Counted from the first letter of the stretch, positions 257 through 33,116 are shown. The stretch is 64,000 bases of DNA from Candidatus Omnitrophota bacterium (GCA_014729775.1 WJJJ01000013.1:2947-66946); one strand, 5' to 3'. Numbers and translations are program-made. The notes: generated by a model from the sequence alone, not told the origin.

Positions 257-1405
257 GTGGGAGATGATGTATCCGTGTGGCTGTTCTGGATATCGTGGTG
301 GTTTCTTTTCTATGCCTATGCCGGGTATCCGCTGCTGTTATGGATGCTCGCGCGCCTGCGTCCCGCTCCGGTACGTGCCGACGCGCAGGATACGCCTCTC
401 GTTTCGCTGATCATCGCGGCCTACAATGAAGAGCGGTCGATCGCGCGGAAACTCGAGGAAACGCTCACCTACGATTACCCGCGGGACCGGCTTGAGGTAA
501 TCGTGGCTTCTGACGGGTCCACCGACGCGACCGACCGTATCGTATCCGGATATGGCGGGCGCGGCGTAAAACTGGTACGCAACGAACCGCGGCAGGGAAA
601 GACCGCCGCGCAGAATAAGGCGGTGGAAACCGCGCGTGGACACATTCTGCTTTTTTCCGACGCGACCACGAAGTGGGATCCGGATACGCTCCGGATGCTG
701 GTACGCAATTTTCATGACGCCGGAGTCGGCTGTGTAGGCGGGGAGGAGTATTTTCTCCCGGAAGGCGGGATTGCCCGTGAAGCGCATTTTTTCTGGAAGT
801 ACGAGAAGTTCATCCGGCGGTGTGAGAGCCGTATCCGGTCGGTGATCGGGGTGAGCGGATGCGTATTTGGTATCCGCCGCGAACTGTACCTGCCGCTCTC
901 GGATTCGCTGATCGAAGATTTCGCCCTGCCGCTGGCGGTTATCCGCTCCGGATTTCGCTGTGTGTGCGAGCCGCGGGCCCGCGCCTATGAGGCGGCCGCG
1001 CCGGATATCTCGGCGGAATTCGCGCGTAAATCGAGGATCGTCAGTAACGGGATGCGGGTGGTTTGGCATATGCGGGCGCTGTTGAATGTAGTCCGTTTTC
1101 CTTTACCGGCCTGGCAGCTTTTTTCGCATAAGATCTGCCGCTGGCTTGCTCCGGTTGCCATGGCTGTCTTGTTCCTAAGCACTCTGTTCGGTCCGGGCGG
1201 CAGCGCGTTCGTCGCAGCGGCCGGCATCGCGCAGTTGATCTTTTATACGTTCGCCTGCACCGGTTTTCTTTTGCGGCTTCGTCCGCGTACACCCGTATGG
1301 ATAAGAATGCCGTATCATTTTTGTCTGATGAACATCGCGGCGCTGTCCGGTCTGGGGAAATTCTTTCGGGGAGAGCGGAAAGTCTTATGGGAGCCGGTGC
1401 GATGA
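257..1405 (+). CDS. glycosyltransferase family 2 (membrane-anchored, cellulose-synthase-like fold)
   Basis: N-terminal TM segment then VSLIIAAYNEE...SDGSTD (GT2 DXD-type core), C-terminal TM helices; GTG start at 257. Confidence 0.8.
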   Translation: MGDDVSVWLFWISWWFLFYAYAGYPLLLWMLARLRPAPVRADAQDTPLVSLIIAAYNEERSIARKLEETLTYDYPRDRLEVIVASDGSTDATDRIVSGYGGRGVKLVRNEPRQGKTAAQNKAVETARGHILLFSDATTKWDPDTLRMLVRNFHDAGVGCVGGEEYFLPEGGIAREAHFFWKYEKFIRRCESRIRSVIGVSGCVFGIRRELYLPLSDSLIEDFALPLAVIRSGFRCVCEPRARAYEAAAPDISAEFARKSRIVSNGMRVVWHMRALLNVVRFPLPAWQLFSHKICRWLAPVAMAVLFLSTLFGPGGSAFVAAAGIAQLIFYTFACTGFLLRLRPRTPVWIRMPYHFCLMNIAALSGLGKFFRGERKVLWEPVR

Positions 1406-1863
1406 AATATGCGTTGGCAGTATGCGCGGTGATCACGCTCATTCTGGTACTGTCGCTTCTCCCAGTGGCGGAGATAAAAACCGCCCTTAAGGGAATGCTG
1501 GAAGATCCCGAGGCGGTAAGGGCCTGGTTCAAGCGGGTCCTGCCGGTGCGGATTACGCCGACGATGGTGCAGAATATTCTGCACGTGCCTTTTTTTGCCG
1601 GGCTGGCGTGGGTGTCGATGCGCGCGTTGACCCGCGGCGAAAGGAGCGGGGTGAAAGCGGTGATGCTGACCGCGGTCATCGTGTGCGGAATTTCAGTGTT
1701 AAGCGAGGGAATGCAGTTTTTTTCGCTGGAGAGAGATCCCGGGTGGGGAGATTTCCTTCTTGATATGGGCGGCGGTATCGGCGGCGCGGGGGTGTTTTTG
1801 ATACGGGAGAGGAGAAAGTTCCGGGGGCGGACCGCGGAATGTGAGCTTCAGAAGGACGAGTGA
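1402..1863 (+). CDS. VanZ-like family membrane protein
   Basis: Four TM segments with [29 protein letters not shown] (VanZ-like E..Q.F..R..D..D..G motif); ATG at 1402 in frame with listed ORF 1297..1863; ATGA overlap with upstream gene. Confidence 0.55.
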
Positions 1864-2381
1864 TGAGGAACTATTTCTGGGAGATCATACGTTACGGATT
1901 CGGTGCCGGCGCGTGGAGATACCGGCTGGAAAAGTGGGCCTGGTACGTGCATGATCATATCGCGCCCCGCGTCCGAATGAAAAAGGAGCGCGGCCATCGT
2001 ATTCATCCCACGGCGTCCCTGCGCTGCGGACACAATATTTCACTGGGAGTAAACGCCCATATCAATCAGTACTGCTGTATTTGGGCCAGTCAGCGGGCGC
2101 GGATCGTGCTGGGCGATAACCTGCTGATGGGACCGGGAGTGAAAATTTTCGCGTCCAACCACGGAACCGGGCGGGAAAAGGTAATGACCGCCCAGCCCTG
2201 GCGGGAGAAAGATGTCGTGATCGGCAATGATGTCTGGCTGGGAGCTAACGCGGTGGTGACTTCCGGGGTGACCATCGGCGACGGCGCGGTCATCGCTGCC
2301 GGAGCGGTTGTGACTAAAGACATTCCGCCGTACACGATTTGCGGCGGGATCCCTGCGAAAGTGTTGAGGGAAAGAACATGA
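1863..2381 (+). CDS. sugar O-acetyltransferase, left-handed beta-helix (hexapeptide repeat) family
   Basis: [48 protein letters not shown] hexapeptide repeats; alt GTG start 1860 overlapping upstream stop. Confidence 0.8.
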
Positions 2382-3502
2382 ACGAAAGAAAACTGCGCGT
2401 CGCGCACGTCCTCGTTGCCTTAGGCGTAGGCGGGATGGAAAAAGTGGTCGTCGATATTATCCGCCGGTTTGACCGGGCGCGTGTGCGGTCGTCGGTGTAT
2501 TGCGTGTGGAAGAAGGGATCGCTGGCGGAAAAACTGGAAAAGGAAGGCATCCCGGTGGAAGTCGTGCAAAGTAACGGATTCCCCCTGAATCTGGCCTGGC
2601 AACTCGCGCGGAGATTCCGTCAGCATCGTTACGACGTGGTACACAGCTACAGCGGAGTGTACCGCGATGCCGCACTCGCGGCGCGGGCCGCGGGAGTGCC
2701 GGTGATCGTGCACACCGATCAGGGCAAATTCTATCCGGACAGCCGCTGGAGCCGGATCAATCACCGGATCTGTTCGGTCCTGCGCGATCAGGTGACCGCG
2801 GTATCCGATGAATTAAAGGAGTTCTTGGTCGGGGAGGTCGGCATTCCCGAACGGAAGGTCATCCGCATTTATAATGGGGTGGATCCTCGCGAACACGCCA
2901 GTAACGGCGCGCGTGACCAAACGCGGCAGGCGCTGGGGATCGGCGCCGATACGCCGGTGATCGGTATCGTGGCCCGCCTGAGCGAGGTGAAAAATCACCC
3001 CCTGCTGTTTCACGCCTTTTCCCTGGTGTGCAAAGAATGCCCGAGGGCGCTGCTGCTCGTTGTGGGCGACGGAAAAAAACGCACTTCTCTGGAGTCGCTG
3101 GCCGGGAAACTGGGGATTACGGATCGCGTCCGGTTTTTGGGGACACGGCGGGACGTCAAGGAGTTACTGCATTGTATGGATATCGTGTGTCTTTCATCAC
3201 GCAGCGAAGGGTTGTCGCTCACGCTGGCCGAAGCCATGGCCAGCGCCAAACCCGTAGTCGCCACCGCGGTCGGCGGCAACACCGAACTCATCCGTGACGG
3301 GATCGACGGCCGGCTGGTGTCGCCGGAACATGAGGAGGAGATGGCCGACGCACTGCGTGAATTGCTGGGAGAGAAAGAGAAACGGGAGCAGATGGGCCGT
3401 CACGCGCGGGAACGGATCAGGGAAGAATTCAATCTGGAAACGATCGTGAAAGAATACGAAAATGTATATCTGAAGCTGAGCGGAAATAAGGGGAGGAGAT
3501 GA
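2378..3502 (+). CDS. glycosyltransferase family 4 (GT-B), EPS sugar transferase (stp-like)
   Basis: [40 protein letters not shown]4 C-terminal signature; ATGA overlap with previous gene. Confidence 0.85.
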
Positions 3503-4620
3503 GGATACTTCATATGATCTCTTCTTCCGGGTTTTACGGCGCGGAACGGGTCGTGCTGGATTTGTTGTGTTTGGCGCGGGATCAGGCGTGGAAGCCGTAC
3601 CTGGTCTGCCTTAAAAGCGCAGAAAAACCGGATCCGGAGCTGTATGGCCGGGCGCAGGAGTGTGATATCGAATCCTACGTGTTCTCCTGCGGGGCGAAGA
3701 TCGACATGGGTACGGTGAGGAAATTGAACGGCTTTGTACGCGCGGAGAATATTGAGTGTATTCACGCGCACGGGTATAAAGCCGACGTGTACGCGTTGAT
3801 GGTGTCCCGTTCCTGCCGGGTTCCGGCAGTGTCTACTTTGCACGGCTGGACAGGAGAGGATCATAAAGTCGGTTTTTACGAACGGATCGACCGCTGGATC
3901 GTGCGCATGTTCGCGCATCTGGTGCCGGTATCGCCGGACATTGAAGAAACGCTGAAACATGCCGGGATCAGCGCCGAAAAGATCACCTGTATCCCTAACG
4001 CGGTCGACACTTCCCGTTTCGATCCGTCAGATGTTGAACCGTTTCGAACCGAGTGGCATCTGGACGGGGCGCTGGTGTTTGGAAGTGTGGGGCGGTTGAG
4101 TCCGGAAAAGGGGCACCGGATGCTTATTCGCGCCTTTTCCCGGATTGCGGCTGAATTCCCGCGGGCGCGTCTGGTGATCACGGGCGAGGGACCTTTGCGG
4201 GACAATCTGCGGCAGCTTGCCTCGGACGAAAAGATTGGGGAAAAGGTGGTGTTTAGCGGACGGCAGACGGAAATGGAACGGGTATACCGTACCATGAACG
4301 TATTCATCCTGCCGTCACTGACCGAAGGGTTGCCGCTGGCCTTGCTGGAAGCGATGAGCATGGCCTGTCCCGTGATCGCGACCCGCGTCGGCGCGATCCC
4401 CGGAGTGGTGGATCCGGCGCAGGGTATGGTAGTGGATCCGGAAGAAACGGCGTTGACCGACGCGATGCGCCGCTTCGCCGCGGACGAATCATTGAGAATC
4501 CGCTGTGCCGCGGCCGCGCGCGCGAAAGTGATACATGAATATGATCTCGCCTCATTTTTTGGAAAATATCAACAAGTGTATGCCCGGGTGTGTCCGCCGC
4601 GGACGGAGAGTCGTGTATGA
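3499..4620 (+). CDS. glycosyltransferase family 4 (GT-B), second EPS sugar transferase
   Basis: EGLPLALLEAMSMACPVIATRVGAIPGVV GT4 signature; ATGA overlap with upstream GT4. Confidence 0.85.
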   Translation: MRILHMISSSGFYGAERVVLDLLCLARDQAWKPYLVCLKSAEKPDPELYGRAQECDIESYVFSCGAKIDMGTVRKLNGFVRAENIECIHAHGYKADVYALMVSRSCRVPAVSTLHGWTGEDHKVGFYERIDRWIVRMFAHLVPVSPDIEETLKHAGISAEKITCIPNAVDTSRFDPSDVEPFRTEWHLDGALVFGSVGRLSPEKGHRMLIRAFSRIAAEFPRARLVITGEGPLRDNLRQLASDEKIGEKVVFSGRQTEMERVYRTMNVFILPSLTEGLPLALLEAMSMACPVIATRVGAIPGVVDPAQGMVVDPEETALTDAMRRFAADESLRIRCAAAARAKVIHEYDLASFFGKYQQVYARVCPPRTESRV

Positions 4621-5456
4621 AAAAGGTGACCAATTTTCTCACGATTGACGTGGAAGAGTATTTTCAGGTCGAGAACTTTAAACGGCATGTTTCCTATGCC
4701 GAATGGGATTCGTTCCCGTCGCGTGTGGTACCGAACACAAGAAAGATCCTCGCTCTGCTCAAACGGCACCGGGTACGGGCGACATTTTTTGTGCTGGGGT
4801 GGGTTGCGGAAAAATTTCCGGAATTGGTACGGGAGATCTCTACGGATGGGCATGAAGTTGCTTCTCATGGCTACCGGCATGAGCTGATCTTCCGGCAGAC
4901 CGCGGAAGAATTTCGGCGTGATGTGCGCGAGGGCAAAGACCTGCTGGAGAATCTGATTCAGAAAAGAGTGTTAGGCTACCGCGCGCCGAGCTGGTCGCTG
5001 ACGCAAAAATCACCGTGGGTATATCAGATATTACGAGAGGAAGGAATTGTTTATGATTCCAGCGTGTTCCCCTATTACCGGTATGACGGCGGATTTCGTG
5101 ACGGCGAGACAAAACCGTATCAGGTCGACGCCGGGCTGTGGGAGTTTCCGGTGTCGACGTTCAGGGTCGCCGGGCAGAATATTCCGTTCGCAGGCGGGGG
5201 CTATTTCCGTCTTTTTCCCTATCGGCTGATCCAATACGGGGTCCGGCGGCTCAATGCGCGGGGACAGCCGGCGATGGTTTACCTGCATCCCTGGGAATTC
5301 GACCCGGGTCAGCCCCGGTTTCAGGCGAGTTACTTAAGTTCGTTCCGGCACTATGTGAATCTGCATACTACGGAAAGAAAACTTGACCGGCTGTTGGGAG
5401 CGCTTTCTTTTTCTTCGCTTGATTCGGCACTCGGCCCGGAGAAGGGGTGCCCGTGA
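4617..5456 (+). CDS. polysaccharide deacetylase, PEP-CTERM-locus subfamily (TIGR03006-like)
   Basis: N-terminus FLTIDVEEYFQVENF and HEVASHGYRHE match the exosortase-locus deacetylase subfamily as I remember it; NodB-type fold. Confidence 0.7.
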   Translation: MKKVTNFLTIDVEEYFQVENFKRHVSYAEWDSFPSRVVPNTRKILALLKRHRVRATFFVLGWVAEKFPELVREISTDGHEVASHGYRHELIFRQTAEEFRRDVREGKDLLENLIQKRVLGYRAPSWSLTQKSPWVYQILREEGIVYDSSVFPYYRYDGGFRDGETKPYQVDAGLWEFPVSTFRVAGQNIPFAGGGYFRLFPYRLIQYGVRRLNARGQPAMVYLHPWEFDPGQPRFQASYLSSFRHYVNLHTTERKLDRLLGALSFSSLDSALGPEKGCP

Positions 5457-6289
5457 TGAAAAAATATGTTAAAAAAATAGTGTCGTGGCTGGCCGTATAC
5501 AGCGGCATCGCGCGAGCGCGGCGGTATTTCCGGCGCAATCTGCCGGTGGTGTTATGCTATCACCGGGTGGTGGACGATCTTGCGCAGGCGCACCAGTATT
5601 CTGATTCGGGAATGGTCGTCTCACGGGAAACCTTCCGCCGCCAGATGGAATTCTTGCGGCGGCATTACTGCGTGATTTCCATGGATACCTTTACCCGGTT
5701 TCTGGACGGTGCCGGGCCGTTGCCTCAATATTCGGTGCTGGTCACGTTTGATGACGGATACAAGGACAACTTCACCTGCGCCTACCCGGTATTCACAGAA
5801 CTGGACCTGCCGGTGACGCTGTTCGTGACCACGGGTTTTATCGACGGCCGGATCGTCCCGGAGTGGGACCGGGAAGTGAATGGACAGCGGCCGGAGATGC
5901 TCTCCTGGGAAGAGATCCGGCGGATGGAGTCCAACGGCGTGACTATCGGCGCGCATACGGTGACCCATCCCGAGTTCGGTACTACCGATCCGAGCCGGGA
6001 GGAGGAGAGGTTGACCGAGATCCCGGCATCCAAACTGCGGCTGGAGGGTGTATTAGGCCAGCCGGTGGAAGTATTCGCCTATCCTAAGGGGAGCATGTCG
6101 ACCGCCGCGCTCAACGCGGTCAAGCAGGCCGGATTTAAAACCGCGTTTGTGGTGCGCCGCCGCGGGGCCGGTCATGACCGGAGGTATTGCTGGCCGCGAA
6201 TACCGGTAAATGAAGGCCGGACGCGGGGGCCGCGCGGGGAAACCGACATGAGGATGTTTGCCTGCGCGCTCGCGGGGATATGGAAATGA
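5456..6289 (+). CDS. polysaccharide deacetylase (NodB homology domain)
   Basis: VLVTFDDGYKDN...TLFVTTGFID...HTVTHP NodB motifs; alt GTG 5447. Confidence 0.8.
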   Translation: MKKYVKKIVSWLAVYSGIARARRYFRRNLPVVLCYHRVVDDLAQAHQYSDSGMVVSRETFRRQMEFLRRHYCVISMDTFTRFLDGAGPLPQYSVLVTFDDGYKDNFTCAYPVFTELDLPVTLFVTTGFIDGRIVPEWDREVNGQRPEMLSWEEIRRMESNGVTIGAHTVTHPEFGTTDPSREEERLTEIPASKLRLEGVLGQPVEVFAYPKGSMSTAALNAVKQAGFKTAFVVRRRGAGHDRRYCWPRIPVNEGRTRGPRGETDMRMFACALAGIWK

Positions 6290-8820
6290 AGGGAACCCAA
6301 CACACAACACAGAGTATCCCGGCGGTAGTGCTGGGTATGACCGCCAACGGGCTGTCGGTCACGCGAAGTTTAGGCCGTCAAGGCGTGCCGGTGACCGGGG
6401 TTGATTCCGGCCGGCATGAGCCGGGGATGTATTCCTGGTACTGCGATCCCCGGGTGTGTCCCGATCCCGGGAACGATCCTGAGGAGTTTCTGCATTGGCT
6501 TCTTGATTTAGGACGGTCATTCGCCCGGCGCCCGGTGCTGTATCTTACGTCCGATAAATATATCGGCGTGGTATCCCGCGCGCGGGAATCTTTGGAAAAA
6601 TATTTTTCATTTTTACTTCCGGACAAAGAGATCGTGGATGCGTTTTTGGACAAGGAACGCACCGCGGAACTCGCCGCGCGTCACGGCGCGCGTCATCCGC
6701 GTACATTCAAAGTACACGAGGAACGTGATCTGCGGGAGGTGTTGTCCATGGTCGCGTATCCGGTGATCTTAAAGCCGCGGTTTTCTCACGTGTGGAGCCG
6801 GTGTTACGGGGGGCAGAAGGTAATCATTGCAAATACTGGCCAAGAATTAAAGGATAAATATTTATACTTGCGAACCCAGTCACAAGAAGTTTTGGTTCAG
6901 GAAATCATCCCTGGACCTGATCAGAATGTGCATTTATTTATGGCATATTACAACGAGTATTCCGTATCCCTGGCGTTGTTCTGTTGCCGGAAACTGCGCC
7001 AGTATCCGCCGCATTTTGGTGTTGGGGCATTAATGGAAAGTATAGAAGAACCGTCAATCCAATCTGTGGGGGAGAGATTCTTAAGGTCAATAGGATATAG
7101 AGGACTTGTGGGGGTTGAATATAAGGTGGATGAACGTACTGGTGAACCGGTTCTTATTGAAGTTAATATGCGGACGAGTCTTGGCGGAGAAATAAGCGTT
7201 CAATCGGGGGTTGATCTTCCGATGATCATGTATCGCCATTTGGCCTGCGGCGAGTCTGAGCCGGACAAAAAGCACTTTTCATTCGTGCCCGGCGTGAAGC
7301 TGATGAACCTTGATCTCGATACCGGGAGCTTTCTTCGTTATCGTCGGGAAGGGGGAATGACACTTGGAGCATGGTTTCTTTCTTTTCGCGCACCGAAACT
7401 GGCCCATACCTATTTTGCCGCGGATGATTTGCGTCCATTTTTCGCGGTCTATTCCCGTTTTCTCAGAAAGATAGGCAGGAAGGTATTTGCGCGCGCGGGC
7501 ACTGCGAGCGCGCCGGCGCGGCGGGTTCCGGCGGTGGTGCTGGGTATGACCGCGAACGGGCTGTCGGTCGCGCGCAGCCTGGGCCGCAGAGGCATTCTTG
7601 TGATCGGGCTTGATTCGGTTGCCGACAGTATAGGATTCAGATCCCGGTATTGCCGCGCCGCGTGCTGTCCGGATGTCCTTCGGGAGGAAGCGGGATTTGT
7701 CGAGTTCCTTGAGCACGTGGGAAAACATTACCGGGAAAAGCCGGTGCTGATCATGACTGCCGATAGCTATGTTGACTGCGTGTCCCGGCATGAGGCGCGG
7801 CTGAAACGTTCTTTCCGGTTCACGATCCCGCGCCGGGAACAGGTTTCGGCGTTCCTGGACAAACGCCGCACCTACGAAGTCTTTCGGGAATACGGGCTCG
7901 CGTGTCCGCGTTCATTCCTGATCGCCTCGGCGGACGGCGCCGTGCGTGCGGCGGCGAAGGTGACGTTTCCCTGCGCGCTCAAGCCCGCCCGCTCGCATGT
8001 CTGGCGTCAAAAGTACGGCGGGAAAAAACTCTTCGTGGTCCGGTCGCCCCGGGAGCTTCGGGAACTGGCGATTAAGCTGATCGCACAAGGGCAGGAGATC
8101 TTCGTTCAGGAGCTTATCCCCGGAGCGGATAACTTCATCTATACCTTTGTCGCCTATTATGACCGGCAGGGCCGGGCGCTGGGGATCTTCACCAAGCAGA
8201 AGATACGCCAGTATCCAATAAAGTTCGGGATCGGCTGTTTTCACGAATCGGGCCAAAATCCGGAAGTACGGGAAAAAGGCCTGCGTTTTCTTTCGGCGCT
8301 GGGCTATACCGGCTTCGCGGGGATCGAATTCAAATACGACTCGCGGGAGAAAAGGTATAAAGCCGTGGAGGTCAATATCCGGACGCTGATGAGCGGGGAA
8401 CTCGCGGTGCGCTCGGGAGTCGATTTTCCTTATTTGTATTATCGCGATCATACGCAGCAGGCGGTTACTCCGGTCACGGCGTTCCGGGAAGGGGTCAAAT
8501 TCGTGCATGAAGACTTAGATCCGGCGTCGTTTTTCCGTTACCGGGCGCGCGGCGAACTCACCCTGCGCCAATGGCTCGCGACCTACCGCGGAGAAGTTCA
8601 TTGCACATATTTTCGTGTAGACGATCCGTTGCCTTTTTTGTTTATGTCCTGCAGGATAGTCCGGACCGCGTGGTGCAAATTAAGGAAATACGCGAGGTTC
8701 GGATTGTTACGATTGAGGGCCGGGCCTGTCGCTTGGAAAAGGGATTCCGTGCCGCGTTTGGATCGGGTGGCTCAGTTTGATGAACCTGAGGTGACAGAAG
8801 GAAAAAAGGCGGGAATATAA
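6280..8820 (+). CDS. tandem double ATP-grasp (COG3919-like carboxylate-amine ligase) fusion protein, 846 aa
   Basis: Two ~400-aa halves each start with P(A)VVLGMTANGLSV(T/A)RSLGR(Q/R)G and carry an ATP-grasp core (EYKVDERTGEPVLIEVNMR / EFKYDSREKRYKAVEVNIR); the repeat is visible at DNA level (6313-6378 vs 7519-7584). Confidence 0.7.
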   Translation: MEMKGTQHTTQSIPAVVLGMTANGLSVTRSLGRQGVPVTGVDSGRHEPGMYSWYCDPRVCPDPGNDPEEFLHWLLDLGRSFARRPVLYLTSDKYIGVVSRARESLEKYFSFLLPDKEIVDAFLDKERTAELAARHGARHPRTFKVHEERDLREVLSMVAYPVILKPRFSHVWSRCYGGQKVIIANTGQELKDKYLYLRTQSQEVLVQEIIPGPDQNVHLFMAYYNEYSVSLALFCCRKLRQYPPHFGVGALMESIEEPSIQSVGERFLRSIGYRGLVGVEYKVDERTGEPVLIEVNMRTSLGGEISVQSGVDLPMIMYRHLACGESEPDKKHFSFVPGVKLMNLDLDTGSFLRYRREGGMTLGAWFLSFRAPKLAHTYFAADDLRPFFAVYSRFLRKIGRKVFARAGTASAPARRVPAVVLGMTANGLSVARSLGRRGILVIGLDSVADSIGFRSRYCRAACCPDVLREEAGFVEFLEHVGKHYREKPVLIMTADSYVDCVSRHEARLKRSFRFTIPRREQVSAFLDKRRTYEVFREYGLACPRSFLIASADGAVRAAAKVTFPCALKPARSHVWRQKYGGKKLFVVRSPRELRELAIKLIAQGQEIFVQELIPGADNFIYTFVAYYDRQGRALGIFTKQKIRQYPIKFGIGCFHESGQNPEVREKGLRFLSALGYTGFAGIEFKYDSREKRYKAVEVNIRTLMSGELAVRSGVDFPYLYYRDHTQQAVTPVTAFREGVKFVHEDLDPASFFRYRARGELTLRQWLATYRGEVHCTYFRVDDPLPFLFMSCRIVRTAWCKLRKYARFGLLRLRAGPVAWKRDSVPRLDRVAQFDEPEVTEGKKAGI

Positions 8821-8824
8821 TCAT

Positions 8825-10903
8825 ATGGAAATAGTGTACACCGGTCTCCACAGTCTGAACGTGACCCTTCTGCTGTTTTTTGCGGTGCGGCTGCTGCGCA
8901 GAAAACATATTGTGAATCTGCTCGCGGGATTGAGCGTGAGCGCGCTGGCGGTGTATGAGGCGGGCAACGCTTTGTTGTCCGCCGGAGTCGCGGCATCGGC
9001 GCGGGTGATCGGCGCCGGGTTCTGTCTCGCGCCGGTGATGTGGATGGTATTGAGCGTGTCATTGCTTCCGCCCCGGTCGTCGCGCTGGAACCGGGTGATC
9101 CTTACGCCGGTGTTTGTGGTCTTATCGCTGGTATTCTTCCTGGTATGGTGGATCAATCCCTTTGTGCGCGCGGCTCATTTTACCGGCGGGGCCGAGTTGG
9201 CTCTGACCGCACGGTATTTCTTTGTACTGGTGGTATTTGACTGTATTCTGGCCTTGTCGAATTTGGAACGGGCTTGGTATTACCGCAAGGATCCGCTCAC
9301 GCGCCGGGTGCTGCTGAGCGGATTCCTTTTTTTAGTTCCCTTCGTTTTTATCTCCACCTACGCGGTGTTTCTTTCGAAGATGCACGTGAGCGGCCTGGCC
9401 TATTCCGCGGGAGCGGTGCTCATCGGCTGCGGAACGTTCTGGCCGCTTGCCCGCAGGGGATTCGGCCTGGCGGAAGTCAAAGAGGACGTGGCGGTAAATA
9501 CGTCGATGACGCTGTTTCTGCTCGGCGGATATTTGTTTCTCATCGGCGCCTTCGTGAAGCTGTTTCAGTGGTTCGGCTGGAATCTGAGCACGCTGTTCTC
9601 TTTCCTGACTACCGGGTTTGTTCTGCTGGCGCTGATGCTTCTTCTTTTTTCTCCCACGGTGAAACAGCGGCTCAAAACCGTGATGATGAGACACTTTACC
9701 CGGCAGAAGTACGACTGGCAGAAACTGTGGGAGGATTTCACCTACCGGATCTCCCTGGTGACGGATATCGAAGAACTGAAACAGAAGATCGGCGGCGCCT
9801 TGCAGAGGATCATGGGCGCCGACGAGGCGAGGATAGTATTGTTTGAGGAACGGGGCCCGTTTGAGCCGGAGTTCGAAGACTGGATGCTGCGCCGCGCCGG
9901 CGCGTTCGGCATGCGTGAGGTGCAGACGGAGGCGATGAAGAAGAAATATCCCCGTGCCTGTGCCTACCTGGAAGCCAGCGGCGCGGAGATGGCCGCGCCG
10001 CTCTACGGCGACAAAAAGGTCATCGGATTGATTTTTCTTTCGTTCCGCGGGGAACGGTTCGTGGACCGGGAACTGCTCAAGCTGATCACTTTGCAGGCTT
10101 CGGGAGTGATCGTCAACTGCTGGGCGTACCGCGCTCTGCAGGAGGCGGAAAAGAAAGAGTCCTTATATAAGGTATCGTCGTTCGTGATCCATGATGTGAA
10201 AAATTACATCAATCATCTTTCACTGCTGGTGTCCAACAGGGACAAGTTCGGCCGAAAAGACTTTCAGGAGGACGCGTTGTTTACCATTGAGAGTACCATC
10301 GTAAAGATGCAGAAGTTGATCGATGAGTTCCGTACTTTACGGGGCGAGGTGAGCGTGCGCAGCCGCGCATGCGCGGTTGCCGGGGTAGTGAACGGGGTGC
10401 TGAAAGAAATGGGAGAGACGCGTCTGCGTGGGGTGGACGTAAGAAACGAAGTGCCGGCGGATATCGTCGTGGTGAGCGATCCCGACCATCTGTATAAGAC
10501 GGTTCTCAATGTTGCGCTCAACGCGGTGGAGGCGATGCAAGGACGGGGGCGGCTTGAGTTCCATGCGGAAGAAAAAGAAAACCAGGGGATTCTTGAGGTG
10601 CGGGATACCGGCCCGGGGATGACGCAGGATTTTCTTGAAACGAAACTGTTCACGCCGTTCAGTTCGACCAAATCCAAGGGACTGGGGATCGGGCTGTATC
10701 AGTGCAAAACGATCATAGAAGCCAATCATGGCCGTATTGAGGCCGAAAGTACTCCCGGGGAAGGGACGGTATTTCGGATTGCCCTGCCGGCGGCGGGAAG
10801 GGGGCCGGCCGTGCCGGGCGATGAGAGGAACGTAGGAAAAGACACGACAGAGAAAGGATCCGAGTATGAGCAAGAACGAACAGGAACCACAGATCACGGC
10901 TGA
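8825..10903 (+). CDS. prsK: PEP-CTERM system sensor histidine kinase PrsK-like (N-terminal polytopic domain + GAF-like + HisKA/HATPase_c)
   Basis: ~8 TM helices N-terminal, then HDVKN H-box and GPGM...GLGIGLY ATPase motifs; sits immediately upstream of a sigma-54 regulator in an exosortase locus. Confidence 0.75.
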   Translation: MEIVYTGLHSLNVTLLLFFAVRLLRRKHIVNLLAGLSVSALAVYEAGNALLSAGVAASARVIGAGFCLAPVMWMVLSVSLLPPRSSRWNRVILTPVFVVLSLVFFLVWWINPFVRAAHFTGGAELALTARYFFVLVVFDCILALSNLERAWYYRKDPLTRRVLLSGFLFLVPFVFISTYAVFLSKMHVSGLAYSAGAVLIGCGTFWPLARRGFGLAEVKEDVAVNTSMTLFLLGGYLFLIGAFVKLFQWFGWNLSTLFSFLTTGFVLLALMLLLFSPTVKQRLKTVMMRHFTRQKYDWQKLWEDFTYRISLVTDIEELKQKIGGALQRIMGADEARIVLFEERGPFEPEFEDWMLRRAGAFGMREVQTEAMKKKYPRACAYLEASGAEMAAPLYGDKKVIGLIFLSFRGERFVDRELLKLITLQASGVIVNCWAYRALQEAEKKESLYKVSSFVIHDVKNYINHLSLLVSNRDKFGRKDFQEDALFTIESTIVKMQKLIDEFRTLRGEVSVRSRACAVAGVVNGVLKEMGETRLRGVDVRNEVPADIVVVSDPDHLYKTVLNVALNAVEAMQGRGRLEFHAEEKENQGILEVRDTGPGMTQDFLETKLFTPFSSTKSKGLGIGLYQCKTIIEANHGRIEAESTPGEGTVFRIALPAAGRGPAVPGDERNVGKDTTEKGSEYEQERTGTTDHG

Positions 10904-12278
10904 ATCTGTTGCGCCTAAAATGAAACTGCTGCTGGTAGATGACGACGAGGGAGTTTTGCGTCAGCTTAAGTGGGCGCTGGCTGAGGAATACGAGGTATAT
11001 ACCGCGGCCACCAAAGACGATGCCCTGCGGCTGCTGCGGGAGGGGCATCCGGAGCTGGTGACACTGGATATCGATTTGAGCGGACGTCCCACCTTTTCCA
11101 AGGACGGGATCGATATCCTGGAGGAAATAAAAGTGCAAGATCCTTATACCAAGGTGATCATGATCACGGGCAACGACGCCAAGGATCTGGCGATTGAATG
11201 TATCGGCAAGGGAGCGTTCGATTATTACGTCAAGCCTGTGAACGTCGACGATTTGAAAGTAATGCTGAAACGGGCGCAGTACATTCAGGAGCTGGAGCGG
11301 GAGAACCGGCGGCTGAGCCGGGAACTGCATGAATCGGCCCGGTTCGAAGAAATGATCGGTGATTCCGAAAAAATGCGTGAGGTGTTCTCTCTGATCCGGC
11401 GCGTCGCTCCGGCAGATGCGACCGTACTGATCACGGGGGAGAGCGGTACGGGGAAGGAGCTCGCGGCGCGGGCGATCCATTACTCCAGCGCGCGTAAAGA
11501 ACGTCCCTTTATCGTGATCAACTGCGGCGCGATCCCCGAAAATCTTCTGGAAAGTGAGCTCTTCGGCCATGAAAAAGGCTCATTCACCGATGCGCATGCC
11601 CGGCGGGTGGGGAAACTGGAAGTGGCCGGTAAAGGCACGGTGTTTCTGGATGAGATCGGCGAGATGAGTCTGAACCTTCAGGTGAAAATATTGAGATTCC
11701 TGCAGGAACGGGTGATCGAACGCGTCGGAGGCAACAAGCCGCTCGAACTCGACGTGCGGGTCATCGCCGCGACCAACAGCGATTTGACCAAAAAGATCAA
11801 GGAAGGAAAGTTCCGGGAAGATTTATATTACCGGTTAAGCGTGATCAATCTTCTTCTGCCGCCTCTGCGCGAACGCGGAGAGGACGTGCTGCTGCTGGCG
11901 AGTTTTTTCCTGCAGAAGTTTATGAAGGACGGCGCGGGCAAGGAACTTCGCGGGTTTACCAAAGAAGCGAAAGACAGACTGCGTACCTATCACTGGCCGG
12001 GGAATGTGCGGGAAATGGAAAATCGTATCCGGCGGGCGGTGATCCTGGCCGACAGTCCTTTGATTTCCCCCGCGCATCTGGGCTTCCATCCCGACTCCCG
12101 CGAAGAAGACAGGCTCAGTAAATTTTCGCTGAGGGATGTCCGCCAGCAGGCCGAGACAAAAGTGATCGTCCGGGCCCTGCAGGAATGCAGGGGGAATGTG
12201 AGTCTTGCCGCGAAAATGCTCGGGATCACCCGTCCTACTCTTTACGATCTCATCAAAAAATACGATATTGAACTGTGA
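10866..12278 (+). CDS. prsR: sigma-54-dependent response regulator PrsR-like (REC + AAA+ sigma-54 activator + Fis-type HTH)
   Basis: [10 protein letters not shown]...D receiver, GESGTGKE Walker A, GAFTGA-type [15 protein letters not shown] loop, C-terminal HTH; 38-bp overlap with prsK. Confidence 0.85.
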
Positions 12279-13514: not shown

Positions 13515-13530
13515 TGGCATGGATGTTGCT
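13515..13530 (+). promoter_or_regulatory. sigma-54 (-24/-12) promoter TGGCATG-N4-TTGCT
   Basis: tTGGCATggatgTTGCTa; GG 13516-17, GC 13528-29, 10-nt spacing; ~60 nt upstream of start 13590. Confidence 0.7.
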
Positions 13531-13589
13531 ACAGACTTATAAAGACTAATCATAAGAGAATGGCGGTTGAGGGAAAAGGAGGCATAATT

Positions 13590-14336
13590 ATGAAGAAGGT
13601 AGTGAGTTTGGTGTGCGCGGTACTCGTAGGGATGATGGTTCAGGGGGTGGCTGAAGCATACACGACTTCGCTCACATTCAGCGGGAGCGCGCTATATGAC
13701 CTGGAGAATCCCGTATATTTTACGGAAGAGATGGTGCCGGATGCTGATACCCGGGAATTTTTGAACGGAGAAGATCCGTTTACCGGCGTGGGCGTAATAG
13801 ATTATACGATTGATTGGGATCTGCCGGAGTGGGATGAGCCGCGGTATTGGTCGGTTGATGCCAGCGCGAGTCTCTACGGTGAATACGTCGACGGCAGCGG
13901 AACGCATCATCCGGACATGGATCTGCATTGGTCCTCCGGCACGGCGTATATGGGACATTTTTCCCTGCAGACTTTGTTCGGGGGAATGACCGAAGATCAG
14001 GTAGTGAATCAAATCGTGGCAATGCTGGATCCGTATTACAGCGGAGATCTCGGCGGATACGCCGTACTCGAAGAGGGATTGGGCGGCATCGCGTTGGTCG
14101 GTGACTTGAATGCCGGGACGATTTACCTCGGTACCCTTGAGGATATTGACAGCGTACTGTTTCAGTTGAACGAAGATTATGACGGTTCCATGGACGTGAC
14201 CTCCGCGGATGTGACGTTCAGCGGTCAGGTGAACGCGACTGCCGCGGCTACGCCGGAACCGACGACCGTCTTCATGCTGTTGTCCGGATTGTGCGGACTG
14301 GCCGGGGTCGGTTTTAAAAAGAAACAGAAGGAGTGA
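13590..14336 (+). CDS. PEP-CTERM sorting-domain protein
   Basis: RBS GGAGG + ATG 13590; signal peptide MKKVVSLVCAVLVGMMVQGVAEA; C-terminus ATPEPTTVFMLLSGLCGLAGVGFKKKQKE. Confidence 0.85.
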   Translation: MKKVVSLVCAVLVGMMVQGVAEAYTTSLTFSGSALYDLENPVYFTEEMVPDADTREFLNGEDPFTGVGVIDYTIDWDLPEWDEPRYWSVDASASLYGEYVDGSGTHHPDMDLHWSSGTAYMGHFSLQTLFGGMTEDQVVNQIVAMLDPYYSGDLGGYAVLEEGLGGIALVGDLNAGTIYLGTLEDIDSVLFQLNEDYDGSMDVTSADVTFSGQVNATAAATPEPTTVFMLLSGLCGLAGVGFKKKQKE

Positions 14337-15010
14337 GAGCGGTGAGGAAGACTGTATTATTTTTGATCGGCGCATTAGTGATATCTTTTCCGGCGTACGC
14401 GATTACCTGGCTGACGCCCAATCTGGTGGTGAATCCGGGCGCGGAGACTGGTGATACCTCCGGCTGGGAAGTGTACGGTCCGGCGTACGCGACGACCAGC
14501 CAGTCCCAGAGTACCGGGACGGTCCTGCCTCATTCCGGCGATTATTTCTTTTCCTATGCGCAGAACGCGGCTTCGGATGCGGTTTTAGTCCAGTACGCGG
14601 ATGTGTCGACTTTTGCCGGTTTGATTGATTCCGGCCAGGCATATGTGCAGGCTGGGTTTTGGTACCAAACTGAAGAATATCAAGGTTCGAGCGATGAGGC
14701 GTTCGGTTCGCTGGGTTTTTTTGAAGGGGACAGCAGCGATATGCCGTTTGACGTGCTCACATCCGATCCGCTGGTGTCATCGAGTTGGGCGTACACGGAG
14801 GTGATGGAGTTGATCCCTGCCGGTACCCGGACTATAGGATTGGCAATGATTGGAGAGCTTGAGTCCGGCTCGTACGTGAACGCGTTCTTTGACGACGCGC
14901 AGCTGCGGGTCGGCACTGAAACCGTTATTCCCGAACCGGCAACCCTGCTGCTGCTTGGTAGCGGCCTGCTGGGGCTGGGCGGGACGCGGCTGCGGCGCAG
15001 AAAAAGATAA
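14333..15010 (+). CDS. PEP-CTERM sorting-domain protein
   Basis: GTG start (14333 or 14342) overlapping upstream stop; signal peptide; C-terminus IPEPATLLLLGSGLLGLGGTRLRRRKR. Confidence 0.8.
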   Translation: MRAVRKTVLFLIGALVISFPAYAITWLTPNLVVNPGAETGDTSGWEVYGPAYATTSQSQSTGTVLPHSGDYFFSYAQNAASDAVLVQYADVSTFAGLIDSGQAYVQAGFWYQTEEYQGSSDEAFGSLGFFEGDSSDMPFDVLTSDPLVSSSWAYTEVMELIPAGTRTIGLAMIGELESGSYVNAFFDDAQLRVGTETVIPEPATLLLLGSGLLGLGGTRLRRRKR

Positions 15011-15066
15011 ACTGTCTGTAGTGCGTTCAGTGAGGAGTGACATTTTTTGAGGAGAGAGGAGTTGGC

Positions 15067-15780
15067 ATGAAGAAGTATGTGTGTCTTGTTTCGTTGTTAA
15101 TGCTGATGATGTACACCCCGGGTGCGTACGCGCTCGTGACCAATATTTCGCTTGATCCGGTTGATTGGGAAGTGGTGCCCGGATCTCAGACGATTAATTC
15201 CTCTCTAAGTAATCCGTCGCCGGATATGCTGCGGATCCAGAAAAGTTCCGCAAATCCAGGCAGCGGGCTGGGCGCATTCTATCAGACGACAGATAGGTAC
15301 GATTTCACTGACGCGATACTCCAGTACCAATGGCGATTCAACGGCCAGGGATCTTATGGGAACGTGTCGATCGGGCCTCGCCCATGGCCGGAAGGTTCAG
15401 GGGTCGGCGGCCGCTTTACCAGCGGCTGGTCTTTTGCGGGGAGTACGCTCATCACTTCCAATCAGTGGTATTATACTCAGTTGATTATTCATGACGATTT
15501 ATCCTATAGTTACGATATCAGCGCGTTGGGATACGGAGAAGGCGGTTTTGTGTCATCGACCGGGTCGCTTTCTTCTGCCCAGTACGATTCTCTTCAGGAC
15601 GGGATCTTTCGCGTGAACATATTTGACAACTGGGCGGCGAATCAATACGTGGATATCACCGATGCGACAATCGAAAGCGAGGGCGGTCCGCAGGGCCCGA
15701 TTCCCGAACCGGCAACCCTGCTGCTGCTTGGTAGCGGCCTGCTGGGGCTGGGCGGGAAGCGGCTGCGGCGCAGAAAATGA
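15067..15780 (+). CDS. PEP-CTERM sorting-domain protein
   Basis: RBS GGAG + ATG 15067; signal peptide MKKYVCLVSLLMLMMYTPGAYA; C-terminus IPEPATLLLLGSGLLGLGGKRLRRRK. Confidence 0.85.
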   Translation: MKKYVCLVSLLMLMMYTPGAYALVTNISLDPVDWEVVPGSQTINSSLSNPSPDMLRIQKSSANPGSGLGAFYQTTDRYDFTDAILQYQWRFNGQGSYGNVSIGPRPWPEGSGVGGRFTSGWSFAGSTLITSNQWYYTQLIIHDDLSYSYDISALGYGEGGFVSSTGSLSSAQYDSLQDGIFRVNIFDNWAANQYVDITDATIESEGGPQGPIPEPATLLLLGSGLLGLGGKRLRRRK

Positions 15781-15808
15781 CATTTGAGGCAAAAGGAAAG
15801 GATTTCGC

Positions 15809-31612: not shown

Positions 31613-32473
31613 ATGAATAAGAAGATCTCATTTGCCGGTATCGAACTTACCCTCAGGACGTTGCGGCGGATTGTGCTTATGAGCGCGCTTTTCGCGGCGG
31701 TGTATTTTCCCGTAATCCCCCATTTTATCTCGCGGTTTTCCGCCCGTGATTCCTATTATTCTCATGGTTTCTTGATCCCTGTGGTTTCGCTGTATTTGGT
31801 GTTTCGCAGCCGGGAAATACTGGCCCGTATACCCACATGGCCGCATCCGGCCGGTTTCGCGCTGATTCTTTTAGGGCTGGCAATGTATCTGATCGGGTAT
31901 GTGCTTCAGATCAATTTCGGGATGTACGCGAGCCTGCTGCCGGTGCTCTTCGGATTAGCGCTGTATTTGGGGGGATCGCAATACTTCCGGGTATTGTTCT
32001 TTCCCATTCTATTTTTGGGATTCATGCTGCCGCTGCCGCAAGTATTCATTATCGGCGCTTCATTCCGGTTGAAACTCATGGCCGCGCAGGCAGCGACGTT
32101 CCTGTCGCGAATGATGGGAATAGAGGCAGTGCAAAATGGATCGATGATTTACTATCCGGGCGGGCAGATACTTGTCGGAGATCCCTGCAGCGGGTTGAGG
32201 TCGTTGATTGCATTTATCGCGCTCGGGGCGCTGTGTGCTTATCTGGCACGGGGAAGTACGATCAAACGGGTGTTACTGTTTGTTCTTGCCGTGCCGGTCG
32301 CGCTTTTCTCAAATCTGTTGAGGCTGACCTTTCTGGTCGGGGTCGGCTATGTCTACGGCGAAAAAATCGCTTCGGGGACGGTGCATGATGTTTCAGGGAT
32401 GCTGGTGTTTGTACTCGGTTTTCTCTGTTTTGTGGGTCTTATCCGGCTGTTAGGCTGCCGGATTGAGGTGTGA
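31613..32473 (+). CDS. xrtA: exosortase (EpsH/XrtA-type archaeosortase/exosortase family)
   Basis: 8 TM helices; conserved Cys in GDPCSGLRSLIAF and downstream Arg in NLLRLTFLVG, the exosortase catalytic signature; XrtA subtype assigned from context only. Confidence 0.85.
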   Translation: MNKKISFAGIELTLRTLRRIVLMSALFAAVYFPVIPHFISRFSARDSYYSHGFLIPVVSLYLVFRSREILARIPTWPHPAGFALILLGLAMYLIGYVLQINFGMYASLLPVLFGLALYLGGSQYFRVLFFPILFLGFMLPLPQVFIIGASFRLKLMAAQAATFLSRMMGIEAVQNGSMIYYPGGQILVGDPCSGLRSLIAFIALGALCAYLARGSTIKRVLLFVLAVPVALFSNLLRLTFLVGVGYVYGEKIASGTVHDVSGMLVFVLGFLCFVGLIRLLGCRIEV

Positions 32474-32474
32474 A

Positions 32475-33116
32475 ATGCGCAAAAATATTTTTCGTTCTTT
32501 TCTGACCGTTCCCTATTTTCAGGTCGCCTGCCTGTTCGCAGCTGCGGCATTGTTGATCGGGAAGATGGAACTGTCTGCCCGTTCCTCTCCGGCTCCCTCT
32601 CAAATTTCGTTCCCGATGCAGATTGGAGAATGGAAAGGAAAAGACCTGGAGGTTGACGAAAGTACCTATGAGATCCTGGAAACGCGGGACGTGATCTCCC
32701 GGGAATATACCGATCCCGACGGCGATACGCTGTATTTTTCGCTCGTGTACGCGCAGGATACCCGGCACAGCTTTCATCCTCCCGAACTCTGTTATGTCGG
32801 GGGCGGTGTGGAGGTCATGGGCAAGGAAAAGGCCGAAATCCCGCTCGATCAGGATCAATTAACCGTAAACGTCCTGTACATGAAAGCCGGGTATGGAAAC
32901 CTGCGCGCCTGGTACTGGTTTTCTGCCGGTTCGGAATTCACCGACAGCTATGTAGGCCAGCAAATACGGCTTTTTTTCGACGTCATGCGCGGGGAAAAAC
33001 CGTCCGGCGCGCTGATCAGAGTCTCGACCCCTTCTCCGGAATCGGCACCCAAGGCCGAATCCTTCATCCGAAAGCTCATCCCTCCTCTCAAACGGACCCT
33101 CGAAAAAATAGGTTGA
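32475..33116 (+). CDS. epsI: EpsI-family exosortase-associated protein
   Basis: Single TM then FHPPELCYVGGGVEV (H.PE.CY.G.G EpsI motif); ATG 32475 (alt TTG 32463), adjacent to exosortase stop. Confidence 0.8.
   Translation: MRKNIFRSFLTVPYFQVACLFAAAALLIGKMELSARSSPAPSQISFPMQIGEWKGKDLEVDESTYEILETRDVISREYTDPDGDTLYFSLVYAQDTRHSFHPPELCYVGGGVEVMGKEKAEIPLDQDQLTVNVLYMKAGYGNLRAWYWFSAGSEFTDSYVGQQIRLFFDVMRGEKPSGALIRVSTPSPESAPKAESFIRKLIPPLKRTLEKIG

Follow-up and report, generated by a model that had tools for sequence, protein, structure and literature searches.

A fused double ATP-grasp ligase behind two sugar deacetylases in a PEP-CTERM exopolysaccharide locus, and its proposed role in sugar N-acylation

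Why should an exopolysaccharide (EPS) locus carry, directly behind two polysaccharide deacetylases, a single gene for two carboxylate-amine ligases joined end to end? The question is raised by a stretch of 64,000 nucleotides from Candidatus Omnitrophota bacterium (GCA_014729775.1, WJJJ01000013.1:2947-66946; hereafter the window, with positions counted from its first letter), in which one gene (6280..8820, + strand) encodes two tandem ATP-grasp carboxylate-amine ligase modules; we refer to it as the double ligase. A preliminary description of this DNA had suggested that the two modules act in sequence on de-acetylated EPS sugars and thereby replace the FemAB-like aminoacyl transferase of PEP-CTERM loci. 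Bringing together profile searches, structure prediction and the gene neighborhoods of relatives, we find that both modules are predicted to be active ATP-grasp enzymes and that a link between this ligase family and de-N-acetylated sugars is well supported by comparative evidence. With modest confidence, we propose that the double ligase N-acylates, and probably aminoacylates, such sugars in the cytoplasm.

Two ATP-grasp modules in one reading frame

The double ligase is a single uninterrupted open reading frame (ORF) of 846 residues with an ATG start, exactly as first described, and its product is 100% the same as NCBI protein P0001, 'MAG: ATP-grasp domain-containing protein [Candidatus Omnitrophica bacterium]' (MAG, metagenome-assembled genome). 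Its halves, residues 1-404 and 405-846, share 41% identity over 387 residues (E=4e-104), and each has Pfam ATP-grasp matches, at residues ~124-325 and ~523-709, respectively. The first module (residues 1-404; 6280..7491), an 'N-type' paralogue by tree placement and pairwise identities, is joined by a short Ala/Arg-rich linker (residues 405-413; 7492..7518) to the second, a 'C-type' paralogue (residues 414-813; 7519..8718) delimited by half alignment, residue conservation, model and tree. The linker is modeled with low confidence (predicted local distance difference test score, pLDDT, <50 at residues 407-412), as is the C-terminal tail (about residues 813-846; 8719..8817; pLDDT <50), which is predicted to be disordered and has no counterpart in the family alignment.

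That each half holds an ATP-grasp core is borne out by Pfam matches, conserved residues, AlphaFold2 (AF2) models and Foldseek comparison alike. The model of the N half, built from a 60-sequence alignment, is a standard three-domain ATP-grasp structure (pLDDT 94.4; predicted template modeling score, pTM, 0.92), and Foldseek matches it to ATP-grasp enzymes only, with top matches at E values of 1e-18 to 1e-16, among which Protein Data Bank (PDB) entry 2pn1 ranks first, ahead of biotin carboxylases, PurK and the L-amino-acid ligase 3vot. In the full-length model (pLDDT 86.5) the second half repeats the secondary-structure order of the first, and the three-domain ATP-grasp fold is thus predicted for both.

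The conservation of individual residues tells the same story. At 48 columns conserved in at least 80% of 60 aligned sequences, each half agrees with the consensus at 45, the off-consensus columns being T287, V291 and I305 in module 1 and F535 and E690 in module 2. The catalytic core of module 1 (K125, K165, Q207-E208, R240, E280, E294, N296 and R298; 6652..7173, + strand) occupies invariant or near-invariant columns, and residue conservation places that of module 2 at K528, K568, Q610-E611, R643, E683, N699 and R701 (7861..8382, + strand). Both halves thus keep the ligand pairs K125/K528, K165/K568, Q207-E208/Q610-E611, E280/E683, N296/N699 and R298/R701, and the E294 column is invariant in a 14-sequence alignment that includes both. 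We take these residues to be ATP and Mg ligands from the Lys...Lys and E-x-N-x-R pattern of biotin carboxylase-type ATP-grasp enzymes. The suggestion of two ligases would have suffered had either half lacked the ATP-grasp fold or its ATP ligands; fold and predicted ligands are found in both, neither half looks degenerate and, judged from its sequence, each is predicted to be an active module.

Near its start, each half carries a block reported in the preliminary description as ~85% identical even in DNA. The repeat is real, and its position needs correction from 6313-6378 and 7519-7584 to 6319..6384 (PAVVLGMTANGLSVTRSLGRQG; residues 14-35) and 7528..7593 (PAVVLGMTANGLSVARSLGRRG; residues 417-438), both on the + strand. 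The high identity also holds, since the best 60-nt window reaches 87% against a mean of 49% between the halves, making the block their most similar stretch at the DNA level. It reads PAVVLGMTANGLSV(T/A)RSLGR(Q/R)G, spans strand 1, a loop and helix 1 of the pre-ATP-grasp domain (as placed by the half alignment, the family alignment and the full-length model), and is the family-wide consensus N-terminal motif in the 14-sequence alignment. Within it, 13 of 19 identical degenerate residues use identical codons, against 46% elsewhere (P about 0.04). We considered recent gene conversion as its source and rejected it, because this codon identity is only marginally over background and the motif is family-wide; the DNA identity appears instead to be due mostly to amino-acid conservation under purifying selection, together with codon bias.

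Each module closes with an amphipathic cationic helix of net charge +6, at residues 383-403 in module 1 (7426..7488, + strand; hydrophobic moment 0.75) and at the equivalent residues 789-809 in module 2 (8644..8706, + strand; 0.70). These two moments are the highest in the whole protein, and the helices may serve as in-plane anchors at the membrane surface. Two antisense ORFs lie inside the gene on the - strand (7279-7791, 170 residues; 7912-8508, 198 residues) and are most likely shadow ORFs of a gene of 56% GC. Scans of the gene and its surroundings for Rfam families, tRNAs, promoters and terminators returned nothing relevant.

Where do the two modules come from? Subtypes were assigned from pairwise identities and a rough neighbor-joining tree without support values, in which the N half clusters with the N half of protein P0016 (P0016_N) and the GT4-fused proteins P0003, P0004 and P0019, and the C half with P0016_C, P0018 and P0162. 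This placement indicates that the halves are distinct paralogous subtypes, each also free-standing elsewhere, and P0016 keeps the order N-type then C-type at 44-47% identity. Other doubles have halves that are mutually closest (P0002, 61%; P0058, 51%; P0073, 48%; P0009, 41%), and these identities exceed those to any half of the window protein, which argues that tandem doubling happened several times independently. The preliminary description had regarded a fused double as uncharacterized in an EPS locus; the fusion is real, and it is rare without being unique, since 12 of the 160 top-scoring proteins with a full family domain in our pooled searches have at least two of them. Among the 80 genome loci described below we found no same-family double, and both fused and split forms occur, the latter as two adjacent ATP-grasp genes of 439 and 443 residues in a Methanomassiliicoccaceae MAG (L051, 5953-8739). 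Archaeal relatives lie between a methyltransferase and a flippase; elsewhere, locus L064 has three separate ATP-grasp genes, and L001 has a single-module copy (~9221-10420) besides its double. In L058 and L068 the family domain is accompanied by a different, generic ATP-grasp Pfam match, making these heterologous doubles, and the C-terminal extensions of L057, L058, L068 and L072 were rejected as second family copies on comparison with the family.

Deacetylases and other partners of the ligase family

In the window, the double ligase follows glycosyltransferase and deacetylase genes. Two GT4 glycosyltransferases (2339-3502 and 3499-4620; 2339..4620 together, + strand), TIGR03088-like and scoring under the family cut-off, precede an XrtA-system polysaccharide deacetylase of the CE4 + DUF3473 type (4617..5456, + strand, start MKKVTNFLTIDVEE; 349.8 bits on TIGR03006 for the ORF at 4590/4617-5456, cut-off 276.2) and a second, PgaB/IcaB-like CE4 deacetylase (5447..6289, + strand) with a Polysacc_deac_1 match. 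CE4 motifs are recognizable in both, TIDVEE and SHGYRH in the first and an intact TFDDGY and HTVTHP in the second, and neither has a signal peptide. That the ligase follows two deacetylases with overlapping junctions, as the preliminary description had it, is borne out by families and coordinates: the deacetylases overlap at 5447 versus 5456, and the second overlaps the ligase by 10 nt (6280 versus 6289).

The same pairing recurs well beyond this genome. With the 14-sequence alignment we retrieved 80 loci from species-representative genomes, 79 of them non-redundant, from Omnitrophota, Bacteroidota, Planctomycetota, Actinomycetota, Gemmatimonadota, Myxococcota, Chloroflexota, Patescibacteria, Bacillota and Methanomassiliicoccales archaea. 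By Pfam, Polysacc_deac_1 is the commonest family directly upstream of the ligase, followed by GT4 and methyltransferases, and a second upstream cluster of 16 proteins of ~330 residues consists of divergent members of the same deacetylase family. When iterative profiles (hidden Markov model searches) were run over all ORFs of the 79 loci, a deacetylase-family gene was found within 6 kb of the ligase in 44, adjoining or fused to it in 27, and directly upstream, usually on the same strand and 2-45 nt off, in 22. Against a background of ~6% deacetylase ORFs among all genes of these loci, the excess in the direct-upstream position has a binomial P of about 1e-9. The pairing is seen in individual gene orders: deacetylase, double ATP-grasp, two Asn-synthase-like genes and flippase in L001; flippase, deacetylase, ATP-grasp, Wzy and GT4 in L005; and in L003 a GT4-ATP-grasp fusion whose immediate upstream neighbor is a GT4-deacetylase fusion.

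Gene fusions tie the partners together physically. P0033 joins an ATP-grasp domain, a deacetylase, a second ATP-grasp domain and a GT4, and an Omnitrophica MAG (L032, 5950-8226) fuses ATP-grasp with a CE4 deacetylase. Further fusions link the ligase to glycosyltransferases, as GT4-grasp-grasp-GT4 in P0016, GT2-GT4-grasp-GT4 in P0019 and ATP-grasp/GT4 in P0003, P0005 and P0021, or to the PF02397 priming transferase domain in P0011 and P0013. Most telling is a conserved four-gene cassette on plasmids of Priestia megaterium and of Bacillus cereus-group strains, in which a PIG-L deacetylase gene is followed by those for a GT4, an ATP-grasp protein and a phosphotransferase, with spore-coat and exosporium genes around it (L166, P. 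megaterium plasmid NC_017139, 6013-10210; L169, Bacillus nitratireducens plasmid, 4001-8213). Its ATP-grasp protein is homologous at ~32% identity (E about 1e-55 to 1e-61), is present on 37 Priestia plasmids and is annotated 'carbamoyl-phosphate synthase', an apparent misannotation. PIG-L and CE4 deacetylases have unrelated folds and the same chemistry. The recurring partner is thus the de-N-acetylation reaction and not one protein family, and with the 22 upstream deacetylases, the deacetylase fusions and the PIG-L cassettes, comparative genomics supports well the proposed link between ligase and de-N-acetylated sugar. A full-text literature search returned nothing on ATP-grasp enzymes in PEP-CTERM loci or on a deacetylase/ATP-grasp cassette.

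How does the FemAB-like transferase fit in? Rubrivivax gelatinosus, Thauera and Rhodoferax have a FemAB-related gene directly after the PEP-CTERM-type deacetylase (PMC3684757), and for these three proteobacterial loci the premise of a 'FemAB slot', on which the preliminary description rested, stands. It does not extend to the 80 closest metagenomic relatives of the window deacetylase (41-54% identity): in the 57 with enough flank, an EpsB_2 priming transferase is found upstream in 31, and the gene downstream is WecB in 18, RfaH-like in 9 and a GT4 in 6. Where a FemAB-like gene is present in such deacetylase-anchored loci, it lies further along. In a Planctomycetales MAG (L045, 2050-5390), a deacetylase is followed by a 771-residue protein in which the ATP-grasp domain is fused to an Acetyltransf_6 domain (PF13480, E=1.3e-19). 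A jackhmmer profile seeded with that domain, whose best PDB matches are Staphylococcus aureus FemX (E=3.3e-7), Weissella FemX and FemA, found FemABX-like homologues of 350-400 residues in 15 of the 79 ATP-grasp loci, directly downstream of the ATP-grasp gene in L030, L037 and L071 and directly upstream in L054. It found them also in 9 of the 80 deacetylase-anchored loci, with the order EpsB_2, deacetylase, WecB, Fem-like in L116, L159 and L160. In the window itself the profile matched none of the ORFs of at least 100 residues over the full 64 kb, and the NCBIfam model TIGR03019 none of those of at least 150 residues scanned up to ~52 kb. The proposal that the ligase replaces FemAB thus agrees with the lack of a FemAB-like ORF in the window and is at odds with co-occurrence in 15 loci and fusion in L045, which show that the two enzymes are often partners and that plain replacement is too simple. 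Their shared pathways support an aminoacylation-type chemistry on the deacetylated substrate, and the second module of the double ligase possibly stands where L045 has its Fem-like domain.

The ligase family as a whole is uncharacterized, its members other than distant D-aspartate ligases being without a known substrate. HMMER, run in full over 1.84 billion cluster representatives, found 11,869 matches at E<=1e-3 and 1,607 at E<=1e-30, most of them single-module proteins of 390-430 residues. Source labels include 'predicted ATP-grasp superfamily ATP-dependent carboligase', 'D-aspartate ligase' (used by JGI for many relatives) and 'carboxylate--amine ligase'; the label 'carbamoyl-phosphate synthase' on some members is wrong. 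For the double ligase itself, no curated NCBIfam model matches at its cut-off, the best scores being 86.5 for PRK12767 (cut-off 218), 41.2 for rimK_fam (143.4) and 39.1 for cyanophycin synthetase (850), and no solved structure is close in sequence. Pfam matches comprise CPSase_L_D2, ATPgrasp_Ter, ATP-grasp, ATP-grasp_3/5, RimK and Dala_Dala_lig_C, with the TupA-like family not among them. Membership in the TupA-like, RimK, cyanophycin-synthetase, Ddl and carbamoyl-phosphate-synthase families was rejected, each being either without a match or far under its cut-off.

A relative whose context hints at its function is found in Latilactobacillus curvatus, where a homologue lies after aspS and an amino-acid racemase gene. 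The C half matches it by BLASTP at 1e-26 with 25% identity over 269 residues, and hhalign matches the family profile to it at 99.6% probability (E=1.7e-23, 314 columns). Because a racD-aslA arrangement has been described for the lactococcal D-aspartate ligase (PMC4155827), we infer from synteny that the L. curvatus enzyme is a D-aspartate ligase. By sequence comparison the double ligase is homologous, not demonstrably orthologous, to this enzyme, which, on the synteny-based assignment, is its nearest relative of known function. Ornithinibacillus and Paucisalibacillus loci (L076, L082 and L084; ~4300-8700) combine a divergent GGDEF gene, a 'carboxylate--amine ligase' ATP-grasp gene and a Mur-ligase-family gene; the ligase of this cassette is 68-88% identical across many Bacillaceae genera, and JGI labels it D-aspartate ligase. 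To our knowledge no D-Asp cross-bridge occurs in these genera, and the three Bacillales ligases were dropped as D-aspartate ligases because their context is unlike racD-aslA and NCBI labels them only 'carboxylate--amine ligase'.

A proposed route to N-acylated sugars and its alternatives

In the route that we favor, the two GT4 enzymes would add N-acetyl-hexosamines to the repeat unit and the two CE4 deacetylases would strip the N-acetyl groups on the cytoplasmic side. The ATP-grasp modules would come last, each converting a small carboxylic acid (most likely an amino acid) into an acyl-phosphate and passing the acyl group to the exposed sugar amine, giving N-acyl or N-aminoacyl hexosamines. 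The substrate would be a nucleotide- or lipid-linked intermediate and the enzyme probably membrane-peripheral. The cytoplasmic face of the membrane is the likely place of these steps because of their ATP dependence, the fusions of relatives to GT4 and priming transferases, and deacetylases that have no signal peptide. As to their order, we prefer two parallel sets of GT4, deacetylase and ligase module, one per sugar. The presence of two GT4s, two deacetylases and two modules favors such an arrangement, as does the occurrence of each subtype as the sole ligase beside a deacetylase (C-type P0162 in L005, N-type P0003 in L003), and it would be slightly more economical than a sequential scheme.

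Several observations weigh against this route or loosen its details. The polarity of the reaction is not readable from sequence, and the sugar might contribute a carboxylate in place of an amine; close relatives of the double ligase are biochemically uncharacterized; the mutual placement of the modules is uncertain in the full-length model (pTM 0.63); and neither an amino-acid racemase gene nor any other gene for making the donor is present in the window. The loci that we counted, though spread over many phyla, are phylogenetically non-independent, and a deacetylase adjoins the ligase in only about a third of relatives, the neighbors of others being methyltransferases, Asn-synthase-like amidotransferases, short-chain or 2-hydroxyacid dehydrogenases, or Mur-ligase genes. 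With such varied neighbors, several substrates are likely for the ligase family. The gene that follows the ATP-grasp gene in Bacteroidota-type, Clostridia and Parcubacteria loci is a D-isomer-specific 2-hydroxyacid dehydrogenase (L019, L022, L041 and L055; ~7180-8190) or a short-chain dehydrogenase (L012, L017, L023, L024 and L028), a hint that some relatives may use hydroxy acids, not amino acids, as acyl donors.

Among the alternatives, a sequential scheme of the kind first proposed, in which module 1 adds a residue to the sugar amine and module 2 extends it in the role of the relatives' FemABX-like enzyme, is, we think, unlikely. The deacetylase/ATP-grasp/FemABX-like triads of L030, L037 and L071 speak for it, L045 has a FemAB-like domain at the position of the second module, and the window has no FemAB-like ORF, a negative that covers these 64 kb; moreover, Fem enzymes and ATP-grasp ligases are established alternatives in peptidoglycan cross-bridges (PMC2655667, PMC2922099). 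What tells against it is that both module subtypes serve as sole ligase by a deacetylase, and that two deacetylases and two GT4s suit two parallel sets. We rate as slightly more doubtful the reverse polarity, in which the modules would activate the C6 carboxylate of uronic acids in the nascent polysaccharide and form an amide there with a small amine such as an amino acid, ethanolamine or serinol. A glycosyltransferase-fused polysaccharide amidoligase of this kind is biochemically established in Cj1438 of Campylobacter jejuni (PMC11800379), and Asn-synthase-like amidotransferases, which act on sugar carboxylates, are frequent neighbors of the ligase (in L001 and across 6 loci). However, Cj1438C is TupA-like, a family to which the double ligase has no Pfam match; scans of ORFs of at least 150 residues, up to ~52 kb, turned up no UDP-sugar dehydrogenase and no other gene for uronic-acid formation; and reverse polarity leaves de-N-acetylase partners of two unrelated folds unexplained.

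The two modules could also be a covalent dimer that runs one identical reaction twice. ATP-grasp enzymes of this type are normally dimeric, and the repeated independent doubling seen in P0002, P0058, P0073 and P0009 is expected if the dimer is the working unit. The window protein makes a poor example of it, as its halves, only 41% identical, belong to two separate subfamilies with free-standing members and P0016 keeps their order, which suggests two maintained specificities; we consider a covalent dimer improbable here. Still further from what we expect, and in our judgment very improbable indeed, is a target other than polysaccharide, such as RimK-like residue addition to PEP-CTERM proteins or action on a soluble peptide or metabolite. 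The sub-threshold matches to RimK, cyanophycin synthetase and L-amino-acid ligases that would suggest it are weak, all of them lying far under family cut-offs, and while some distant relatives do sit outside glycan loci (on a Deinococcus plasmid and in the Bacillales GGDEF/Mur-ligase cassette), fusions with GT4, GT2, deacetylase and priming transferase tie close relatives to glycan assembly, and no exosortase gene was found in the 6 kb around the other ATP-grasp loci.

An extension of the N-aminoacylation route, which we mention as a speculation with little chance of being right, is that the modules build an amino-acid or peptide stem on the de-N-acetylated EPS sugars, with the stem amine serving as the exosortase acceptor for PEP-CTERM proteins. 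If so, it would be the Gram-negative-type equivalent of sortase anchoring to a peptidoglycan cross-bridge, itself the product of Fem transferases or of the homologous D-aspartate ligase, and deacetylase plus FemAB in XrtA loci and deacetylase plus ATP-grasp would be two routes to the same acceptor.

The surrounding locus and known counterparts

The claim that the double ligase lies in a PEP-CTERM/exosortase EPS locus holds on the evidence of its neighbors, which include PrsR, the TIGR03006 deacetylase, exosortase, EpsI and PEP-CTERM ORFs. It belongs to a co-directional block (257-12278) in which all genes are on the + strand with overlapping or near-abutting junctions and no convincing terminator was found between them. 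At the head of the block are a GT2 glycosyltransferase, a VanZ-like protein and a hexapeptide-repeat acetyltransferase (257..2381, assigned by Pfam/NCBIfam), and at its end a PrsK-like histidine kinase (228 bits, below the cut-off of 300), which starts at 8825, 4 nt past the ligase stop, and the PEP-CTERM-box response regulator PrsR (581 bits, above the cut-off of 502.6; 8825..12278 for the pair). Beyond PrsR come successive PEP-CTERM genes and genes for a priming sugar transferase, TPR proteins, exosortase/EpsI, a kinase/sigma-54 regulator pair and rpoN. The exosortase and EpsI are found at 31613..33116 (+ strand), the former scoring 166.2 bits on TIGR02602 (cut-off 105.55) and 174 on the XrtA-specific model, below its cut-off of 208, and EpsI scoring 103.6 bits (cut-off 42.8).

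The PEP-CTERM run consists of six consecutive + strand ORFs (13560-18512). Four exceed the Pfam PEP-CTERM gathering score (13560-14336, 14333-15010, 15037-15780 and 15809-16447), the next is flocculation protein PepA-like (16448-17575; 75.8 bits, just under the cut-off of 80) and the last is a weak Pfam PEP-CTERM match (17652-18512). A sigma-54-like -24/-12 element, TGGCATGGATGTTGC, is found at 13515-13529, ~30 nt before the first of them; the number of such motifs in the window shows no excess over chance. Between the run and an RND transporter lies an ORF resembling a REP-associated tyrosine transposase (RAYT; 18758-19468; 68 bits, cut-off 80), in the lowest-GC stretch of the first 30 kb (GC 0.486). 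The transporter, of HAE3 type (19543-21924), opens a gene set at 19543-25848 that continues with a ThiF-like adenylyltransferase (21908-22801), a LolA-like protein (22838-23623) and a DUF1302 protein (23553-25001) and closes with a FeeM-type N-acyl amino acid synthase on the - strand (25027-25848). Directly after exosortase/EpsI is a second pair of histidine kinase and sigma-54-dependent response regulator (33127-35756), convergent with rpoN (35762-37153, - strand), so that the locus holds two sigma-54 two-component systems and the sigma factor gene itself. Over the entire window (1-64000), every 2-kb bin shows positive GC skew and the + strand carries nearly all long ORFs, which suggests that the full stretch belongs to a single replication arm; no tRNA genes or Rfam families were found in the 64 kb.

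The deacetylase-ligase cassette, to which a Fem-like gene is sometimes added, is spread over many phyla of bacteria and archaea. Were the proposed N-acylation correct, hexosamines with non-acetyl N-acyl or N-aminoacyl groups would be far commoner in microbial surface glycans than is recognized, the cassette would provide a gene marker for such sugars, and the role of the unexplained deacetylase/FemAB pair in exosortase loci would be clarified. Cultivable and genetically tractable strains of Priestia megaterium and the Bacillus cereus group carry the cassette on plasmids, which makes the idea directly testable.

Among known systems, the closest counterpart is the D-aspartate ligase (Aslfm of Enterococcus faecium, AslA of Lactococcus lactis). 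It activates a side-chain carboxylate as an acyl-phosphate, beta-aspartyl-phosphate, and couples it with a Lys amine in the precursor of peptidoglycan, doing as an ATP-grasp enzyme what Fem transferases do with tRNA (PMC2655667, PMC2922099). Like each module of the double ligase it is an ATP-grasp carboxylate-amine ligase of ~400 residues, and it acts in the cytoplasm on an amine of a cell-envelope precursor, as we propose here. In contrast, the double ligase, compared by way of the L. curvatus homologue, is only ~25% identical, with an alignment that ends near residue 325; it has two modules per chain and no racemase partner or peptidoglycan context, its partners being sugar deacetylases and glycosyltransferases, and its acceptor is presumed to be a sugar amine, not the Lys epsilon-NH2 of UDP-MurNAc-pentapeptide. 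The C-terminal amidoligase of Cj1438 in the C. jejuni capsule pathway is likewise a glycosyltransferase-fused ATP-grasp enzyme that forms an amide bond on a polysaccharide during cytoplasmic assembly (PMC11800379). It differs in belonging to the TupA-like family, in activating a glucuronate carboxylate and in not involving a deacetylase, and the deacetylase partners of the double ligase argue for the opposite polarity.

A similar logic is familiar from the mycothiol (MshA/MshB/MshC), bacillithiol (BshA/BshB/BshC) and Nod factor (NodB/NodA) pathways, in which GlcNAc is installed by a GT4 or chitin-type transferase, stripped of its acetyl group by a PIG-L or CE4 deacetylase and acylated on the freed amine by a third enzyme. 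By analogy, the order GT4, CE4, ATP-grasp in the window and the PIG-L/GT4/ATP-grasp cassette would mirror these steps. The acylating enzymes of the mycothiol and Nod pathways are not ATP-grasp proteins, MshC being a Cys-tRNA-synthetase-like ligase and NodA an acyltransferase. The FemAB-related protein of XrtA loci (TIGR03019) has the same place after the deacetylase and the same presumed amine aminoacylation (PMC3684757), with an unrelated GNAT fold and tRNA-dependent chemistry; enzymes of its kind often accompany the ATP-grasp ligase in relatives. In structure, the best match is 2pn1, a 'carbamoylphosphate synthase large subunit, split gene' (Foldseek E=2.5e-18, TM score 0.81 on the target), and yet 2pn1 and the PRK12767 'carbamoyl phosphate synthase-like' family differ from the double ligase (86.5 against the cut-off of 218; identity 17%) and are themselves uncharacterized. 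Seen against these systems, the chemistry proposed for the double ligase is familiar, and its tandem fusion is a rare but recurrent variant of the ATP-grasp ligase.

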